This document shows, in pieces, positions 2,984 through 16,701 of a DNA stretch of 16,701 nucleotides; position 1 is the stretch's first letter, and each line of letters begins with the position of its first letter. A model generated the notes under the pieces. That model saw only the letters and a list, made by a program, of their open reading frames with translations, was not told where the DNA came from and searched no databases. Location: UHGV virus genome UHGV-1600828; one strand, given 5' to 3'. Both the position numbers and the translations under genes were made by a program. Source of the DNA: a virus.

Positions 2984-3010
2984 GGCCACCTTCTAATAGG
3001 TGGCTTTTTA
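2984..3010 (+). terminator. Rho-independent terminator-like hairpin after the moron
   Basis: Stem GCCACC (2985-2990) / GGTGGC (2999-3004), 8-nt loop, then TTTTT (3005-3009). Confidence 0.6.
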
Positions 3011-3025
3011 ATTTTCGGAGTATAT

Positions 3026-4354
3026 ATGACGTGGAAAGACAGGCTTCAGGACGCGTCATTTCGCGGCGTGCCGTTTAAGGTTGAAGAAGAAAGTGCGGGA
3101 ACCGGTCGCCGTGTGGAAACACATGAATACCCGAACCGCGACAAACCCTATACCGAAGACCTGGGGAAAATCACTTTTCGCCCGTCCATCACGGCTTATG
3201 TGGTGGGAGATGACTGCTTTGACCAGCGCGATCGCCTGATTGAAGCGCTGAATAAACCAGGTCCCGGCACGCTTGTCCACCCGACATATGGTGAGCTGAA
3301 AGTCTGTGTTGACGGGGAAGTTCGGGTCAGCACATCGAAAAGTGAAGGGCGTATTGTCCGCTTTGACCTGAAGTTTGTCGAAGCAGGAGAACTCTCTTAC
3401 CCCACATCAGGTGCGGCGACGGCGCAGACGCTGATGTCATCCTGTTCTGCACTGGATGACTGCATCAGTGACAGCTTCAGCGGTTTCAGTATCGATGGTG
3501 TGGCGGATTTCGTGCAGAACGACGTTATCGGTAATGCCAGCATAATGCTGGGGTATGTTTCTGATGCGATGAAAGTGGTGGATTCTGCCGTATCGGATGC
3601 CGCCAGGCTGTTGCAGGGGGATATCTCGGTACTTCTGCCGCCGCCATCGTCAGGCAAAAATTTCGTTGAGCAGGTGCAGAAAATGTGGCGTACCGGGAAA
3701 CGCCTTTATGGTAACGCCAGCGACCTGGTCACCATGATCAAAACGCTTTCTGGTGTCAGCCTCGGCAGCGATTTGCAACCGCGCGGCGTCTGGAAAACGG
3801 ACAGTAAAACCACCGCCACAGCGACGCAGCAGCGTAACATGGTTGCCAGCACCCTTCGTACGACTGCAATCAGCGAAGCGGCGTATGCCGTTACCCGATT
3901 GCCTGCGCCAACAACTTCTGCGGTGATGCAGAATGCCGCAGTGGGGCAGTCAACAACACCCGCGCAGAGCTCCGGCTGGCCTGCCGTCACGCATCCGGTG
4001 CTGAACAATGCACCGGCGGTGAAAAACACGGTTGACCTGCCAACGTGGGAAGAACTGACCGACATTCGCGACACACTGAATACGGCAATTGATAAGGAGT
4101 TGTCCCGTACAACCAGTGATGCGCTGTTTCTGGCTCTGCGCCGGGTGAAAGCAGATCTGAATGCGGATATCAACACGCGCCTTGAACAGTCTGCTCGGAT
4201 CATTCAGCGCACGCCGGATGAGGTTTTACCCGCGCTGGTGCTGGCGGCGACCTGGTTTGATAACGCGGCGCGTGACGCGGACATTATCCGGCGTAATGCC
4301 ATTACGCATCCCGGCTTTGTGCCGGTAATCCCTCTGAAGGTGCCAGTGCAATGA
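3026..4354 (+). CDS. DNA circularization protein (Mu N/gp43-like), 442 aa
   Basis: ATG at 3026 with GGAG upstream. N-terminus (MTWKDRLQDASFRGVPFKVEEE…HEYP…) matches recalled Mu N-family N-terminal domain. Position after the tape measure; ATGA overlap with the next gene. Confidence 0.8.
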   Translation: MTWKDRLQDASFRGVPFKVEEESAGTGRRVETHEYPNRDKPYTEDLGKITFRPSITAYVVGDDCFDQRDRLIEALNKPGPGTLVHPTYGELKVCVDGEVRVSTSKSEGRIVRFDLKFVEAGELSYPTSGAATAQTLMSSCSALDDCISDSFSGFSIDGVADFVQNDVIGNASIMLGYVSDAMKVVDSAVSDAARLLQGDISVLLPPPSSGKNFVEQVQKMWRTGKRLYGNASDLVTMIKTLSGVSLGSDLQPRGVWKTDSKTTATATQQRNMVASTLRTTAISEAAYAVTRLPAPTTSAVMQNAAVGQSTTPAQSSGWPAVTHPVLNNAPAVKNTVDLPTWEELTDIRDTLNTAIDKELSRTTSDALFLALRRVKADLNADINTRLEQSARIIQRTPDEVLPALVLAATWFDNAARDADIIRRNAITHPGFVPVIPLKVPVQ

Positions 4355-10202: not shown

Positions 10203-10256
10203 TGCAGAAATAACGAGCAAATGGCATCATTCCTGCTTTTGTCAGGGAGATCCACC

Positions 10257-10811
10257 ATGCTTATTGGCTATGTACGCGTATCAACAAATGACCAGAACAC
10301 CGATCTACAACGTAATGCGTTGAACTGTGTAGGATGTGAACTGATTTTTGAAGACAAGATAAGCGGTACGAAGTCCGAAAGGCCCGGACTGAAAAAACTG
10401 CTCAGGACATTATCGGCAGGTGACACTCTGGTTGTCTGGAAGCTGGACAGGTTAGGGCGCAGTATGCGGCATCTTGTTACGCTGATAGAAGAGTTGCGCC
10501 AGCGTGGCGTGAATTTCCGAAGCCTGACTGACAGTATTGATACCAGTACCCCAATGGGCCGTTTCTTTTTTCATGTCATGGGTGCCCTGGCTGAAATGGA
10601 ACGAGAACTGATTGTTGAACGAACAAAAGCTGGACTGGAAGCTGCTCGCGCACAGGGACGAATTGGTGGACGTCGTCCCAAACTTACACCAGAACAATGG
10701 GCGCAGGCCGGGCGATTAATTGCATCAGGCGTTCCTCGCCAGAAGGTGGCGATCATCTATGATGTTGGTATATCGACACTGTATAAGAAGTTTCCGGTCG
10801 GAGATAAATGA
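10257..10811 (+). CDS. Site-specific DNA invertase, serine recombinase of the Hin/Gin/Pin/Cin family, 184 aa
   Basis: ATG at 10257 preceded by GGGAGA. N-terminus [18 protein letters not shown] with catalytic Ser in VRVSTNDQ, and a C-terminal helix-turn-helix region (…GRRPKLT…STLYKK…) match recalled Gin/Hin sequences. ORF-track start at 10221 adds 12 unlikely residues. Confidence 0.9.
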
Positions 10812-10871: not shown

Positions 10872-11741
<870 letters not shown>

Positions 11742-11819: not shown

Positions 11820-11870
11820 CGGGTCGGTCTCGAAACCCGTAGCCACGTCATATGCAAGAACGTGCTACGA
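11820..11870 (+). repeat. Imperfect direct repeat copy 2 (partner of 10793-10850), upstream of the GIY-YIG gene
   Basis: …CGGGTCGG…GAAACCCGTAGCCACGTCATATGCAAGAACGTGCTACGA, with the same dyad and central TATGCAAGAA as copy 1. Confidence 0.55.
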
Positions 11871-12083
11871 CTGGCTGGTGAACTTCCGATAGTGCGAGTA
11901 TTGAATGATTTCCAACTGTTATCGATTTTGCGTATTTTTTGCATGAGAGGATTTTTACCTCCTCCCACCGATCCTCCATGGCTTTACGCCAGTGTCTCTG
12001 GTCTGCTATGTGCCAAAAGTAGACATTGCTGACATAAAATATATGATTTGACCAACTACAACCGAAGAATAGTCCAATACATC

Positions 12084-12112
12084 TTGGGTCTACATCCAAC
12101 TAGTTATAGAAT
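12084..12112 (+). promoter_or_regulatory. Candidate promoter for the 12150 gene (TTGGGT -17 nt- TAGAAT)
   Basis: -35-like TTGGGT at 12084-12089 and -10-like TAGAAT at 12107-12112. Pattern match only. Confidence 0.25.
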
Positions 12113-12149
12113 CCCGAGTATACATGTTAGTTTTGGACATTCTAATCAC

Positions 12150-12569
12150 ATGAAATATTGCTACCTGATAATTTTAAGCTTGACTATTTCTTCTGCTCAG
12201 GCTGAGACATTTCCCGCCAAGCTAACCTGTAATACGGGTGAACAAATTACTCTTAAAGTTACTGGTCCAGAGCAGCGACTGATCTACACTTCTTCACTCT
12301 ATGGAACATTCCATGGATATCTCGATGTATTTAAAGGGTTATCACCTGAGCGTCAATATGAGGTACTTGCCAATATTCATGGAATAGCTCGATATAGGGA
12401 CAGCCCGTTACATTTTACTCTCCTAATGAAACGAACCAATGGTGAGATGGATAATGGCTCAATTATCTATCGATATACCTACCTGAAAGACGAGCAACTG
12501 ATTGATGAAGAAGGACATTGCAGTCCGATAAAAGATGGCGGATTTATTGAGGGGAGCAAAAGTTACTAA
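12150..12569 (+). CDS. Small secreted/periplasmic protein of unknown function, 139 aa with predicted signal peptide
   Basis: ORF-track start at 12048 is a TTG. First ATG at 12150 gives MKYCYLIILSLTISSAQA|ETFP…, a typical Sec signal peptide with an AQA cleavage motif. Two Cys in the mature part. No strong SD. Confidence 0.5.
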   Translation: MKYCYLIILSLTISSAQAETFPAKLTCNTGEQITLKVTGPEQRLIYTSSLYGTFHGYLDVFKGLSPERQYEVLANIHGIARYRDSPLHFTLLMKRTNGEMDNGSIIYRYTYLKDEQLIDEEGHCSPIKDGGFIEGSKSY

Positions 12570-12884
12570 GGCCAAGCGTATAGTTATCGGTATGCTTACC
12601 GTTTGCAGACCCCACGGCGCTCAGGCAGCCCGCTCCGTGCCAATAGCAGGCATTACTATGGTCTGTTCCGTAACAGTCATTTTTACCAAAGTATATGGTT
12701 AGAACTATGCCGAAAATGCCCTCATACCATAATTAGAACTAACAATTAATTTTTTAAATTAAAATAGTTTAAAGAGTCATTTTTAATCACTTATTTATCG
12801 TGCTTATAGCTCGAAAGATACACCTTATCATCATCCCCTGTTACAATGTAGGGAGTAGGTCAATAAGATTAGAAGGAGATTTAA

Positions 12885-14351
12885 GTGAAAAAAATCAGTG
12901 ACGAACAAATTAATATCGAGGCTCAATCAGGATATAGACCATGGACTATAGATTCTGGTATCGGATTGCTTCCCTTTTCAGAATTAGGTGATCGAGAATT
13001 TGAGTTGCTATGTTATTTGTTAGTAAAGAACGAAATTGAAGATGGAAAGCATAAAAATATATCCTCAATATCTTTAATGCAAGGAGTTTCTGAAAGAGGA
13101 CGCGACTGCGTGCTATACCATAACGGTGTTGTAAGTGGTTTAATACAATGTAAAAAAATGCAAGGTAGAATAACTAGACCGCAAGCATTAAGAGAAATAA
13201 TTAAATTTTTATTGTTTTCCATTATTGATAATAGTTTGCTTCCCGCTCCTGATTGTTTCGAATATAAGTTGTATGTATCAAATGACATCGCTGAAACTAC
13301 AAACTCACTAATTCATTCTTACTCAACCGAAGTTGAGGTGGAAATAAAGTCTGATACTATCAGTAAGTATATAAAAGATGTTGTATCTGAATACGAGTCA
13401 TTCAAAATTTTTGAAAACAGCCTACCAATTAGTAAAGTTATTGATCTTTTGAGACGGATAAATGTAACCGCATCAAATGCAACAGATTTAACCTTGCGAG
13501 TTCATAAGTATGATTCATTGTTATCATTGTTTTTTAATGTAAAAACTGTAATCGACTTAGAATCTGCAGATAAAGTTATACGTAACGCGCTTGATGACTA
13601 TGGTTTAAAATACTTGACCGATGAAGACTTAAAACAACTTCAAATTCGCATTTCAAATACTAAAGAAGAAAATCGAATAAATTTAGGTTTTGTGGATTTC
13701 TTTGGTTATAACAAAGAGTTTTTTAAATCCTTGAAAGGCGAGCCATTTAAACAAGTGATAGAAGCGGTTGCGTCGGTAACATTATCATTAGATAAGTATT
13801 TAATGGAATTCATAAATAGTAAAATCAATGAGCTAGTTTTTGAAAACGTCACAATAAAATTATTAAATCCAGGGAGGATTCACCCTTTCAGTGTGGGCGT
13901 GGTGGCACCTTACCTATTTCAGAGACTGTCCATTAAAGTCGTCTCAAGAAAGTTGCCAACAGAGTTAGTCACCAAATTTTATGAACAAGCATCTCTGTCC
14001 AAAAAGGAATTAATCGACTCGATAGCAATACAGCTCTTTGAAACAAGCGAAAGAGTTATGAAAGGAGATTTCAGTCAGTTAGTGGGAAATCCAGAAGACA
14101 TACAGTTTAAAAAGAGAATATTCACTCATATACATAATGGATTCAACAGTATAGAAGATGCAAAAACTACTTTTTCTCGAGACATCCAGATTATAATGCC
14201 AACATTAGATTTTATAGAAGAAAAAATAGGTGAGCTATTACAAGAAGAGCGTACTGTGGTAATAAAAGACGCCTCTTTTTTGGATAATGATGATGAGATT
14301 AAGAAAATAGCAAAAACGCTGAGTATGATCGAACCCAATCCAGGCGCATAG
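12885..14351 (+). CDS. 488-aa protein: N-terminal Mrr/restriction-endonuclease-like (PD-(D/E)xK-type) motif plus large uncharacterised C-terminal domain; candidate defence protein
   Basis: GTG start at 12885 with AAGGAGA RBS 6 nt upstream. N-terminal …REFELLCYLL…GVSERGRDCVL…GLIQCKKM… resembles the recalled Mrr-catalytic pattern (E … D … QxK). Remaining ~380 aa are Lys/Glu/Ile-rich with no motif recognised. Confidence 0.7.
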   Translation: MKKISDEQINIEAQSGYRPWTIDSGIGLLPFSELGDREFELLCYLLVKNEIEDGKHKNISSISLMQGVSERGRDCVLYHNGVVSGLIQCKKMQGRITRPQALREIIKFLLFSIIDNSLLPAPDCFEYKLYVSNDIAETTNSLIHSYSTEVEVEIKSDTISKYIKDVVSEYESFKIFENSLPISKVIDLLRRINVTASNATDLTLRVHKYDSLLSLFFNVKTVIDLESADKVIRNALDDYGLKYLTDEDLKQLQIRISNTKEENRINLGFVDFFGYNKEFFKSLKGEPFKQVIEAVASVTLSLDKYLMEFINSKINELVFENVTIKLLNPGRIHPFSVGVVAPYLFQRLSIKVVSRKLPTELVTKFYEQASLSKKELIDSIAIQLFETSERVMKGDFSQLVGNPEDIQFKKRIFTHIHNGFNSIEDAKTTFSRDIQIIMPTLDFIEEKIGELLQEERTVVIKDASFLDNDDEIKKIAKTLSMIEPNPGA

Positions 14352-14387
14352 AATAACTGTAGTTTTGGTATTTTTATTTTTAGTAGC

Positions 14388-14413
14388 TGTGTTAGTGTAA
14401 TTGCACTAACACA
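14388..14413. repeat. Perfect 10-bp-stem inverted repeat (CTGTGTTAGTG-taattg-CACTAACACA)
   Basis: Stem 14388-14397 pairs with 14404-14413 around a 6-nt loop. Not followed by a U-run on either strand, so not a canonical intrinsic terminator. Confidence 0.5.
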
Positions 14414-14417
14414 CTCC

Positions 14418-14470
14418 TTGAGCTGCTCCCCGTTGCTTAGGACACTTCAATGTTAGTCATGAAGTAGTGA
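14418..14470 (+). repeat. ~50-bp imperfect direct repeat, copy A (partner at 16647-16701)
   Basis: TTGAGCTGCTCCCCGTTGCTTAGGACACTTCAATGTTAGTCATG… aligns with TTGACCTGCTCCCCGTTGATTAGTACACCCCGATGTTAGTAATG… at the window end, roughly 80% identical by eye. Confidence 0.6.
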
Positions 14471-14745
14471 ACTTCCGCTCATCGCTCATAACAGACATAA
14501 ACTTCAGTTATGGCATAAAGGTATGCATGCTGGGTGGGGAAAGTATGAAGGAAAAGAAGACTGCTGCGCCGTTTGTCGTCACGTTTATCTTCATTGGCTA
14601 TGCAAGTCGTAATACAAGGTGGGACAAAACTGAGACACATAAGGCCTCGCAATGGCTTGCAAGGCTTTACATGTTTTGATGTGGTGGGACGTGTGAGCGC
14701 AGTGTTGATGGGGTAATGCTTTGAATTAGAAGTGGATTCTTATAA

Positions 14746-14790
14746 TTCGTAATGCGAAGGTCGTAGGTTCGACTCCTATTATCGGCACCA
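14746..14790 (+). other. 3' fragment (~45 nt) of tRNA-Thr(CGU) (thrW-like); likely prophage att junction (attR-type remnant)
   Basis: TTCGTAATGCGAAGGTCGTAGGTTCGACTCCTATTATCGGCACCA: anticodon-loop remnant reading CGT, T-arm GTAGG-TTCGACT-CCTAT, 3' acceptor strand TATCGGC, discriminator A and CCA. Upstream sequence cannot form the 5' acceptor, D-arm or anticodon stem, so it is not an intact tRNA. Matches the recalled E. coli thrW 3' end. Confidence 0.7.
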
Positions 14791-15254
14791 TCTTTTCTCG
14801 TAAAATCATCAAGTTACTATTGCAGTATTTTGCTTTGTTCAACACTAATGTGCAATTTTGCGCGTTGTAGGTGTGGCAAAATTGTGGCAAAGCTAATTGG
14901 TCAGCATTTGCATCATTACGCTAAACAAACTACTTCCTTATAAACGTAATGTGTTGACCTTATCGATGCGTTGCATGAAAGACAGTTTAGTGATGAAAAA
15001 TCTTATAAATTAACAGCTTAAATACATTATCCGATAGAGCTAAGTGCCAGAAAGGGACACTCAGGTTACATAACAATGAGTGATACAGTTCACGTAGTGA
15101 AGGTACTATGCCTAGGTGTTTGATTACACTTTGATCATTGATGATACGCTCATGAAGGTATTACTTTCCTGTAATGAGCAGGTAGGTAACGATGTCGAAC
15201 TAAATGAATTTATAGTAAACTTTGCAACAAGAGAACAAGGGAGTATGAGGGGTT

Positions 15255-16241
15255 ATGGCTACTGCAGAGCAGATCAAAGCTTTATTGAAAAGCCACGTTG
15301 ATCGTGATGATCAGCGTTTCTTTTCTATTGCTTTGCAGGTGGCAGCTAAGGAAGCAAGGCAAGGTCATCATAAGCTTGCTAATGATATAAAAAACTTAGT
15401 TGATAAAAATCAGAAAACAACGAGTTCTGTAGGTTTAGTTGAAAAACGACTTACACCATTTGTTAAGCAGCCTGATGGTGATCTTAAGGGGTTACTTGAG
15501 CAAACGAACAAGCCAGTACATCTTCAAGATCTGGTGATTTCTGGAAGCGTTAGGGAAAGATTGAATCAGGTTCTGCTTGAACAAAAACAGAAAGATAAAC
15601 TTTCTGAGTTTGGGCTTATTCCAAGAAGAAAAATTCTTTTCACTGGTCCTCCCGGTACTGGTAAGACAATGTCCGCATCAGTCATTGCTACAGAGTTAAA
15701 GCTACCACTTTATACAGTCGTCTTAGATAATCTAATCACTCGCTATATGGGTGAAACTGCAGCTAAGCTGCGTTTAATTTTTGACCACATACGGCAAACA
15801 AGAGCTGTATATTTTTTTGACGAGTTCGATGCTATAGGAACTCAGCGTGGCGCTCAGAATGACGTTGGAGAAATTCGTAGGGTCTTAAATTCTTTTTTAA
15901 TGTTTGTAGAGCAGGATGATTCTGAGAGCATAGTTTTAGCTGCAACCAATCATCCAGAGCTTTTAGATCGCGCCTTATATAGACGATTTGACGATATTAT
16001 ACCGTTCACAAGGCCTGAGGATAATCTAATCAGGAATCTTATTGAACAGAGACTCGCTGTCTTTGACCTCGGTAATTTATTTTGGAGTGAGATCATTGAT
16101 AGTGCTTCAGGTCTAAGTGCAGCGGAGATCACGCGAGCAAGTGAAGATGCTGCCAAAGAATCAGTGCTTTATAATGCAAACAATATTACAACCGATTTGT
16201 TAGTAAAGGCTATAAAGCGTAGGCAAGAAAGTAGACAATAA
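15255..16241 (+). CDS. Classic-clade AAA+ ATPase, 328 aa
   Basis: Walker A GPPGTGKT, Walker B VYFFDEFD, sensor-1/second region of homology LAATNHPELLDRALYRRFD with an Arg-finger-like RR. ~120-aa N-terminal non-ATPase region. GAGGGG RBS-like upstream. Confidence 0.8.
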   Translation: MATAEQIKALLKSHVDRDDQRFFSIALQVAAKEARQGHHKLANDIKNLVDKNQKTTSSVGLVEKRLTPFVKQPDGDLKGLLEQTNKPVHLQDLVISGSVRERLNQVLLEQKQKDKLSEFGLIPRRKILFTGPPGTGKTMSASVIATELKLPLYTVVLDNLITRYMGETAAKLRLIFDHIRQTRAVYFFDEFDAIGTQRGAQNDVGEIRRVLNSFLMFVEQDDSESIVLAATNHPELLDRALYRRFDDIIPFTRPEDNLIRNLIEQRLAVFDLGNLFWSEIIDSASGLSAAEITRASEDAAKESVLYNANNITTDLLVKAIKRRQESRQ

Positions 16242-16249
16242 GGGATGAA

Positions 16250-16669
16250 ATGACTACCAACAAGAGGCATATTTTATTAAACGGCTATGTTTCCCCCGAA
16301 AACTATCGCTCTAGGAGCAATGGTCGTAGTCCCCAAGTCCCAGCTCGTGATCGAGCGGTACATGGTATATCATTACTAAATCAGTATAGCCGTATATTGA
16401 ATCATTATGATGAAAGACCGAGGCTTCCCCCTGTTACTGATGAAAAAGGGATTTATGTTAGGCTAATCAGTTTTGAACAATGCGATCTTCCTATAGATAA
16501 AATCGATAATACTTATTTCAAGCTTTGTTCTTTAGTTAAATCAAATAATCGTGAAACTGCGATTATATACATTAATGAAAATGACAGAACTAAATTCACT
16601 AAAAAAATAAATGACTATTTGAATCCATCGAAGGATGGTATCGAGTTTGACCTGCTCCCCGTTGATTAG
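16250..16669 (+). CDS. Hypothetical protein, 139 aa, co-operonic with the AAA+ ATPase
   Basis: ATG 8 nt after the ATPase stop with AAGGGA RBS, suggesting co-transcription and coupling. No recognisable motif. Its 3' end lies inside repeat copy B. Confidence 0.6.
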   Translation: MTTNKRHILLNGYVSPENYRSRSNGRSPQVPARDRAVHGISLLNQYSRILNHYDERPRLPPVTDEKGIYVRLISFEQCDLPIDKIDNTYFKLCSLVKSNNRETAIIYINENDRTKFTKKINDYLNPSKDGIEFDLLPVD

Positions 16670-16701
16670 TACACCCCGATGTTAGTAATGTCTTCATAAG
16701 C
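16647..16701 (+). repeat. ~50-bp imperfect direct repeat, copy B (partner at 14418-14470), truncated by the window edge
   Basis: Overlaps the last codons and stop of the 139-aa gene (…FDLLPVD*). Aligns with copy A. Confidence 0.6.

Follow-up and report, generated by a model that had tools for sequence, protein, structure and literature searches.

Does the pair of similar sequences near the right end of this DNA delimit a mobile unit and, if it does not, why are the two copies alike? An earlier note on the window, by which we mean the whole 16,701-nt stretch analysed here (UHGV virus genome UHGV-1600828), had read two copies of a direct repeat of about 50 bp, copy A and copy B, as the limits of a cassette-like unit. 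A repeat search returned a single repeat family in the window, aligning 14418-14461 with 16647-16690 over 44 nt at 84% identity. On recounting, 37 of 44 positions matched (41 of 55 over the full span first proposed), the likeness fading after about base 44. The best 44-nt windows in 20 first-order Markov sequences used as random controls contained 28-32 matches, and the binomial expectation over all position pairs is 5e-8. The repeat pair is thus real, chance being excluded by these figures. The features discussed below are collected in Table 1.

Table 1. Coordinates of the features considered in the window
Feature	Position	Strand	Remarks
PD-T4-3 (LEM-3-like GIY-YIG) defence gene	10872..11696	-	first cargo gene after the Pin invertase; PADLOC 2.8e-140; Pfam LEM-3_GIY-YIG
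R-type half-element relic	11982..12053	-	arm GTGCCAAAAGTAGAC; decayed tip near 12053; upstream of the 139-aa cargo gene
139-aa cargo gene	12150..12569	+	between two minus-strand relics; RefSeq CDS in L003
Weak R-type half-element relic	12601..12679	-	arm and shortened repeat; tip near 12679, facing the 488-aa gene
488-aa cargo gene	12885..14351	+	bordered by copy A; exact protein always in this prophage end
Perfect 10-bp-stem hairpin	14388..14413	.	end of the 488-aa gene; belongs to the cargo, not to the repeat
Copy A in context (L-type half-element)	14418..14501	+	IS-type repeat 14419-14461, spacer 14462-14468, arm GAACTTCCGCTCATCGCTCATAACAGAC 14469-14496
Conserved prophage-end module	14502..14744	+	similar on its left to the lambda b region immediately to the left of tI/attP; from about 14620 on, attP arm as in phages integrating at thrW
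3' 46 nt of tRNA-Thr (thrW)	14745..14790	+	attR core of the left-hand prophage; tRNA-Thr matches in prophage-free genomes begin here
ietA	15255..16241	+	AAA ATPase partner of ietS; PADLOC IetA 5.5e-77; Pfam AAA 1.8e-29
Truncated ietS (S8 peptidase)	16250..16669	+	codons 1-132 genuine (to 16647); last 6 codons and stop from the IS tip
Copy B: IS left terminal inverted repeat and leader	16648..16701	+	repeat 16648-16690 (43 nt, tip TGACC) and 11-nt leader; ISSen4-family IS3-type; cut by the window end

By its sequence, copy B is the left end of an ISSen4-like, 1.2-kb insertion sequence (IS) of the IS3 family, inserted in ietS of an IetA/IetS defence pair. Members of the IS3 family are marked by terminal inverted repeats of the form TG...CA, by overlapping orfA and orfB with a programmed -1 frameshift, by a DDE transposase and by target duplications of 3-5 bp. 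Copy B, the left end of which reads TGACCTGCTCCCC..., is 100% identical to the left end of copies annotated as 'IS3-like element ISSen4 family transposase' in two loci (L001 and L005), and matched profiles with E 5e-8 and E 1e-11, the latter with a profile of 13 relatives that contained no window sequences. The source contig, a metagenome assembly of 16,821 bp (ENA ERZ27334011, k115_42828), continues for 120 nt beyond the window, into orfA of the IS, and then ends; the start of orfA past the window reads ATGAAGAAGCGTTTTTCCGACGAACAG; ATGAAGAAGCGTTTTTCCGAC....

We searched 14300-16701 against 5,426 complete E. coli genomes. In many of them, tRNA-Thr is followed by genes for an AAA ATPase and then an S8 peptidase, and every match to an intact gene stops at 16647. 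E. coli LR-33 (L001) alone matches to the window end, with an ISSen4-family copy at another site of the same peptidase gene. This IS copy, 1221 bp long, starts TGACCTGCTCCCCGTTGATTAG... and ends ...GGGGGCAGGTCA, is flanked by the 4-bp duplication CTGT, and its left and right terminal repeats match at 33 of 43 positions. The last 55 nt of the window are identical to the left end of this IS and to that of a copy in E. coli C, where the copy-B repeat has matches at about 20 sites; per genome, the identical copy-B sequence is found as IS ends at up to 20 sites. IS copies with identical ends are annotated as 'programmed frameshift' ISSen4-family transposase. The ISSen4-family IS belongs to the IS3 family and, in our reading of OrfA and of the 4-bp duplication, to the IS407 group.

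Intact IetS has 829 aa (PADLOC IetS model match 2.9e-34), and in IS-free genomes ietS runs about 2 kb past 16647. The 139-codon open reading frame (ORF) does overlap copy B, as the earlier note had it; the gene end 'DLLPVD*' that was read there, and with it the '139-aa gene', is an insertion artefact, since the intact homologues stop at 16647 and the contig enters the orfA of the IS, so that the broken ietS frame is read into the IS tip. The element of copy B starts at 16648, the first T (16647) being part of the interrupted ietS. Copy B very probably goes back to a plain copy-out, paste-in insertion of a full-length IS, which broke ietS and inactivated the IetA/IetS pair. The right end of this IS, and with it any target duplication, falls outside the 16,821-bp contig; a complete IS at this place would be expected to add about 1.17 kb, to have the same right end as in L001 and to be followed by a 4-bp AGTT duplication and by ietS from ...CCCTAGAAATC. 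Assemblies typically stop at repeats, and the break at the contig end is attributed to the IS being one. This reading removes a false cassette, describes an IetAS system knocked out by an IS and explains the end of the contig.

The DNA between the copies was then read against its context. The window is the end of a prophage at thrW, then ietAS: tail fibres, the Pin invertase and the cargo genes are followed by the attP arm, attR and ietAS, and in prophage-free genomes ietAS abuts thrW. The tRNA-Thr fragment reported between the copies was confirmed as a 46-nt 3' piece, and ARAGORN found no whole tRNA there. Upstream of it, 14620-14791 matches the attP regions of P22, SfV, SfI and SfIV, and 14457-14611 matches lambda 27308-27464, just left of tI and the attP P arm. 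The segment 14469-14744 is present in about 4100 of the 5,426 E. coli genomes, at attR-proximal prophage ends at thrW, icd and att-lambda and at the ompT-envY end of the DLP12 region. The interval 14418-16647 crosses the prophage/ietAS junction, with the attP arm, the thrW attR, ietA and the truncated ietS, and is not a unit; with copy B an IS end besides, the two copies do not delimit a cassette. They recall the attL/attR duplications of tRNA-integrating elements in that a genuine attR, the thrW 3' fragment, lies between them, but the repeat itself is not an att sequence, lies 325 bp from the core and has an IS end for a partner. A search with Rfam over 12000-16701 gave nothing relevant.

Several minor features were noted in this region. 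After the attR tRNA fragment (window 14791 onward; L003, L048-L057), the same prophage end is followed by ietAS, by a CP4-6-like CbtA/CbeA island, by IS66 or by a P4-type integrase island; thrW is a multi-occupancy integration site. Within the prophage-end module, a small hydrophobic ORF (14527-14679; 44-50 aa, MKEKKTAAPFVVTFIFIGY...) has a conserved counterpart in the lambda b region, where it is unannotated, and some assemblies call it as a gene of 50 aa. The P22/SfV-type attP arm contains a terminator-like hairpin of 9 pairs (14644-14665, minus strand), placed where the circular phage would be expected to have a tI/sib-like element downstream of int.

As judged by alignment and profile matches, copy A is homologous to IS left ends from the exact IS tip onward, and the same half-element is found beside unrelated cargo in P2-like, P4-like and lambdoid elements. 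The plan of the half-element is a tip, a 43-nt repeat, a spacer and an arm GAACTTCCGCTC.TCGCTCA. Copy A was found by nhmmer with a profile of 13 relatives devoid of window sequence (E 4e-18) and with one of 7 halves of the opposite type (E 6e-6). It matches the IS left repeat at 36 of 43 positions, differing at 7, and retains the TGA tip; among the relatives, identity to the IS repeat reaches 39/43 (L044 against an IS remnant in L047). Repeats of the copy-A type are nearer to the IS left end than to the right one, and their likeness to the IS goes no further than the inner edge of the repeat, the sequences differing from base 44 onward. Upstream of the TGA tip the 13 relatives have nothing in common, their sequences being unrelated as far as the tip itself.

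The exact sequence of copy A is single-copy and confined in E. coli to about 30 genomes, in each of which it follows the 488-aa gene in the same prophage; no phage record contained it, and its weaker matches in E. coli are IS left ends. Copy A and the ISSen4-family IS thus have in common a 43-nt terminal repeat starting at the same tip, whereas copy A has no transposase gene after it and no matching right end in the window. Since no second, right repeat is recognisable in the window, the half-element here is not a complete element. No full IS with a left end closer to copy A was found. Two local candidates were rejected: a 12-nt inverted match at 12851-12862, as a partner of copy A, goes no further than its 12 nt, with about 3 of the kind to be expected from chance alone, and a minus-strand mini-ORF across the arm ('MSEERKF') is not conserved past residue 7.

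The hairpin reported beside copy A, with its 10-bp stem, is present, and a cargo-side hairpin before the half-element is also found in L046 and in lambda. One locus (L010:5304-6640) has an unrelated IS2 in the loop of this hairpin, with a deletion of everything up to rclA, copy A and attR included; it was considered, and rejected, as an 'occupied' copy A site. In two other genomes, an IS110-family ISEsa2 is inserted at the same point of the arm, between GTGAACTTCCG and CTCATCGC (window 14479/14480; L002:3534-4772 and L011:4909-6147), and a third genome has an IS110-family copy directly after the half-element (L044:4155-5150). The arm looks like a specific IS110-type target.

The earlier note had suggested looking for the repeat beside different cargo elsewhere. 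Sequences of the copy-A type are indeed so placed; the cargo is to the left, where the window has the 488-aa gene, and not to the right. The broader idea of a repeat bordering swappable cargo holds for copy A only, in relation to the gene on its left, and copy A does sit at a cargo-exchange boundary. In the window, two relics on the opposite strand lie upstream. With seven R-type halves and no window sequence in the profile, nhmmer matched the left-hand relic at 12035-11994 (minus strand, E 5e-6) and the right-hand relic, on the window alone, at 12659-12622 (E 1.2e-4); in the latter, TAGTAATGCCTGCTATTGGCACGGAGCGG resembles the right half of L029 by eye. Because of these weak opposite-strand relics at about 12053 and 12679, a better candidate for a cassette is the stretch 12680-14418, in which the 488-aa gene and its hairpin are enclosed by the weak tip at about 12679 and the tip of copy A at 14419. 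In L008, a prophage end at the icd site has the same left flank (window 11853-12015) and the same right arm (from 14474) with a different gene between them. The 488-aa protein had no Pfam, PADLOC or PHROG match, and the 139-aa protein encoded between the relics had none in Pfam or PADLOC and one marginal PHROG match, to a family of unknown function (E 0.006). A composite-transposon origin of the 488-aa gene was rejected, since the identical protein was found in no other context. A second, degenerate arm-like motif, GGTGAACTTCCGATAGTGCGAG, is present at 11866-11900, within a partial 'capsid protein' pseudogene (RefSeq, L003); this annotation may be spurious there.

The half-element could be followed into other genomes. 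Two diverged solo relatives, one from E. coli NCTC9113 (L004) and the other from Chimaeribacter (L015, where a P4-alpha-like primase is adjacent), have the IS-like 43 nt of copy A followed by the motif GAACTTCCG.TC.TCGCTCA, and lie after an unrelated SEC-C gene. A scan of IMG/VR for the arm motif gave 24 loci, about one third of which have a sequence of the type TTGA.CTGCTCCCCGTTGATTAA...ATG.TAGTAATG upstream of the motif, at a fixed distance. In E. coli, the median copy number is one place per genome (three subtypes). Complete versions, made of a left repeat, spacer, arm, loop, complementary arm and right repeat, occur at L029:7381-7561 and L025:2034-2196. Both fold with paired termini, with z -3.1 against shuffles for L029 and a less clear z -1.65 for L025. 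The direct repeats flanking them are of 5 bp, TCAAC in L029 and GTTGA in L025 (one base out of register), whereas the IS itself makes 4 bp. Their anatomy is that of a small non-autonomous IS derivative. No empty site was found for the half-element family.

The usual layout is a minus-strand half, the cargo and a plus-strand half; the tips face the cargo, and so does the tip of each surviving IS-type repeat. Profile matches in opposite orientation flank cargo in the window, with E 5e-6, 4e-18 and, on the window alone, 1e-4, as they do in L004, L006, L015, L018, L020, L026, L029, L036, L040, L041 and L042. Paired opposite halves bracket cargo in at least 12 loci, including SEC-C, fun(Z) and lambda ea31-ea59; the cargo of L026 is, in our reading of two N-termini only, a candidate Gabija-like pair. 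The P2 Z/fun locus between G and FI is bracketed in L018, L029, L036, L041, P2 and P2-EC53; in P2 (L043), the profile match is on the left only and the right arm was read from the sequence. P4-like satellites with bracketing halves are L015 and L020. Single right-hand units follow McrBC (L044, where only that unit was detected), a CBS-domain gene (L045) and an ATPase-HNH pair by intE at icd (L046). Borders consisting of arms only also exist, for instance in L008, and the lambda b region keeps the arm only. In a lambda lysogen (L006), ea31-ea59 (HNH endonuclease and AAA ATPase) lies between weak half-element relics at 19-58 and 3004-3039 (E 6e-4 and 1e-6); the lambda b region may be a cargo slot, since ea31-ea59 is so bracketed.

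The likeness of the two copies in the window is very probably explained by their both being terminal inverted repeats of the ISSen4 lineage of IS3-family IS, which makes them homologous, and by separate events: copy B is the working left end of an IS in ietS, and copy A a transposase-less relic heading a conserved half-element at the edge of the cargo. The pairing itself is ordinary; the copies come from separate events and do not act together. We weighed four other readings. The earlier note had offered tandem integration, that is, two related elements head to tail at thrW, each with the repeat about 300 bp before its own tRNA fragment. The prophage is truly at thrW, CP4-6-like and P4-type integrase islands follow the tRNA fragment in other genomes, and the satellite L015 has a copy-A-type unit a few hundred bp before a tRNA/tmRNA-like 3' end (by eye; ARAGORN calls nothing there). 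But where a second tRNA-Thr fragment had been predicted beyond 16701, the source contig reads IS orfA, with no att sequence and no approach to a second tRNA; the IS-free gene goes on for 2 kb, and the copy-B sequence recurs at up to 20 sites per genome as IS ends. No tandem elements with a common end sequence were thus found, and we regard this arrangement as extremely improbable.

Only slightly less improbable is the second suggestion of the note, that both copies are 3' ends of homologous genes (...LLPV.*) left after cassette replacement. Among the relatives, changes are concentrated at every third base of the frame CTG CTC CCC GTT, and all four proline codons are seen. Against this, the frame is open for 17-73 codons in about 25 loci and is never part of a long gene, and such short frames led us to reject the plus-strand 'LLPVD*' reading. 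The frame of copy B arises from the insertion, and an IS that encodes a transposase has these 43 nt as its terminal repeat, with 33/43 identity to its own right end. Nor is copy A, with its 'ELLPVA*', a decayed gene end: its open stretch has just 34 codons, and no long ORF ends in this way in any of about 25 relatives. A composite mobile unit, in which the relic repeat at 14419 and the IS right end beyond the window are used together to make an interval of about 3.4 kb transposable, deserves about as little credence. Its orientation fits (a left-type repeat on the left, the IS right end on the right) and the relic keeps its TGA tip; no complete E. coli genome has both copies together, however, protein look-up led to just two contigs with this junction, the source itself and a similar place, 7 of 43 positions in the relic are unlike the IS repeat, and there is no sign of the block having moved. 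Chance similarity of the copies has a negligible probability, given the figures above and the finding of both copies by independent profiles.

To return to the two IS-derived ends, copy A is the 43-nt IS-type repeat at the head of a half-element (repeat, spacer and palindromic arm) that is fixed at the right cargo edge of the thrW prophage, just inside the attP arm. The half-elements may go back to a small palindromic derivative of such an IS, similar to a MITE, and may persist as common flanks where cargo is exchanged. With about one copy per genome and no empty site found, 'MITE-like relic' is what we infer rather than a demonstrated membership. MITEs and solo IS ends are likewise short, with IS-type terminal repeats and no transposase, and two relatives of copy A fold as long hairpins. 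In contrast to MITEs, the copy-A family is low-copy and consists mostly of halves with tips turned inward around cargo, not outward around a short core; inverted terminal repeats around a short core are absent at copy A and present only in the relatives L025 and L029.

The cargo next to the half-elements is variable and consists mostly of defence genes, in P2-like phages as in P4-like satellites and lambdoid prophages. That the half-elements serve as portable borders of defence-gene cassettes, across these elements and also e14-like prophages and a phage-plasmid, with cargo being swapped there, is a tentative proposal that we consider doubtful as it stands. Swapping could proceed by short-homology recombination between borders or by an ISSen4-type transposase acting in trans on the inward tips. 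Inside-out transposition would be expected to leave direct repeats of 3-5 bp beside the inward tips, and none was seen in 5 cassettes; recombination within common borders is therefore at least as likely as the transposase route. According to a recent survey, P2 and P4 hotspots have almost no transposable elements and the route of exchange with other elements is unclear, yet near-identical defence systems occur in unrelated elements (PMC13586616). Half-element borders would be missed by gene-based surveys because they carry no transposase gene. If the proposal, for which the evidence is distributional, is true, the borders would provide a searchable handle on how defence hotspots are refilled.

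Two known systems invite comparison. At the P2 Z locus, GenBank AJ512682 annotates a 'left inverted repeat' and a 'right inverted repeat'. The arm by copy A and the beginning of that right inverted repeat are homologous, and both kinds of border bracket horizontally acquired genes. The copy-A arm differs in being placed at a lambdoid-type prophage end beside attR and, as far as checked, the annotated P2 feature does not include the IS-type repeat that separates arm from cargo. Integron attC sites and gene cassettes also have imperfect palindromes around promoter-poor, swappable genes. This is a resemblance only, since here an integron integrase nearby and an attC core-site pattern are both lacking, and the repeat is of the DDE-transposon type; no IntI-type integrase was annotated in any locus inspected. 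The variable Z/fun locus of P2 has reportedly been treated by Nilsson, Karlsson and Haggard-Ljungquist (2004, Mol Biol Evol 21:1). Full-text literature searches for the sequence and for ISSen4 returned nothing on the copy-A element. The copy-A family adds to known kinds, namely IS relics and the border repeats of the P2 Z locus; any wider role is speculative.

Further to the left in the window, a 20-nt inverted repeat (8311-8330/10176-10195, 95% complementary, 1845 nt apart) surrounds oppositely oriented tail-fibre-assembly ORFs. A Pin/Gin-type serine invertase (10221-10811) adjoins this segment, which looks like an invertible host-range segment.
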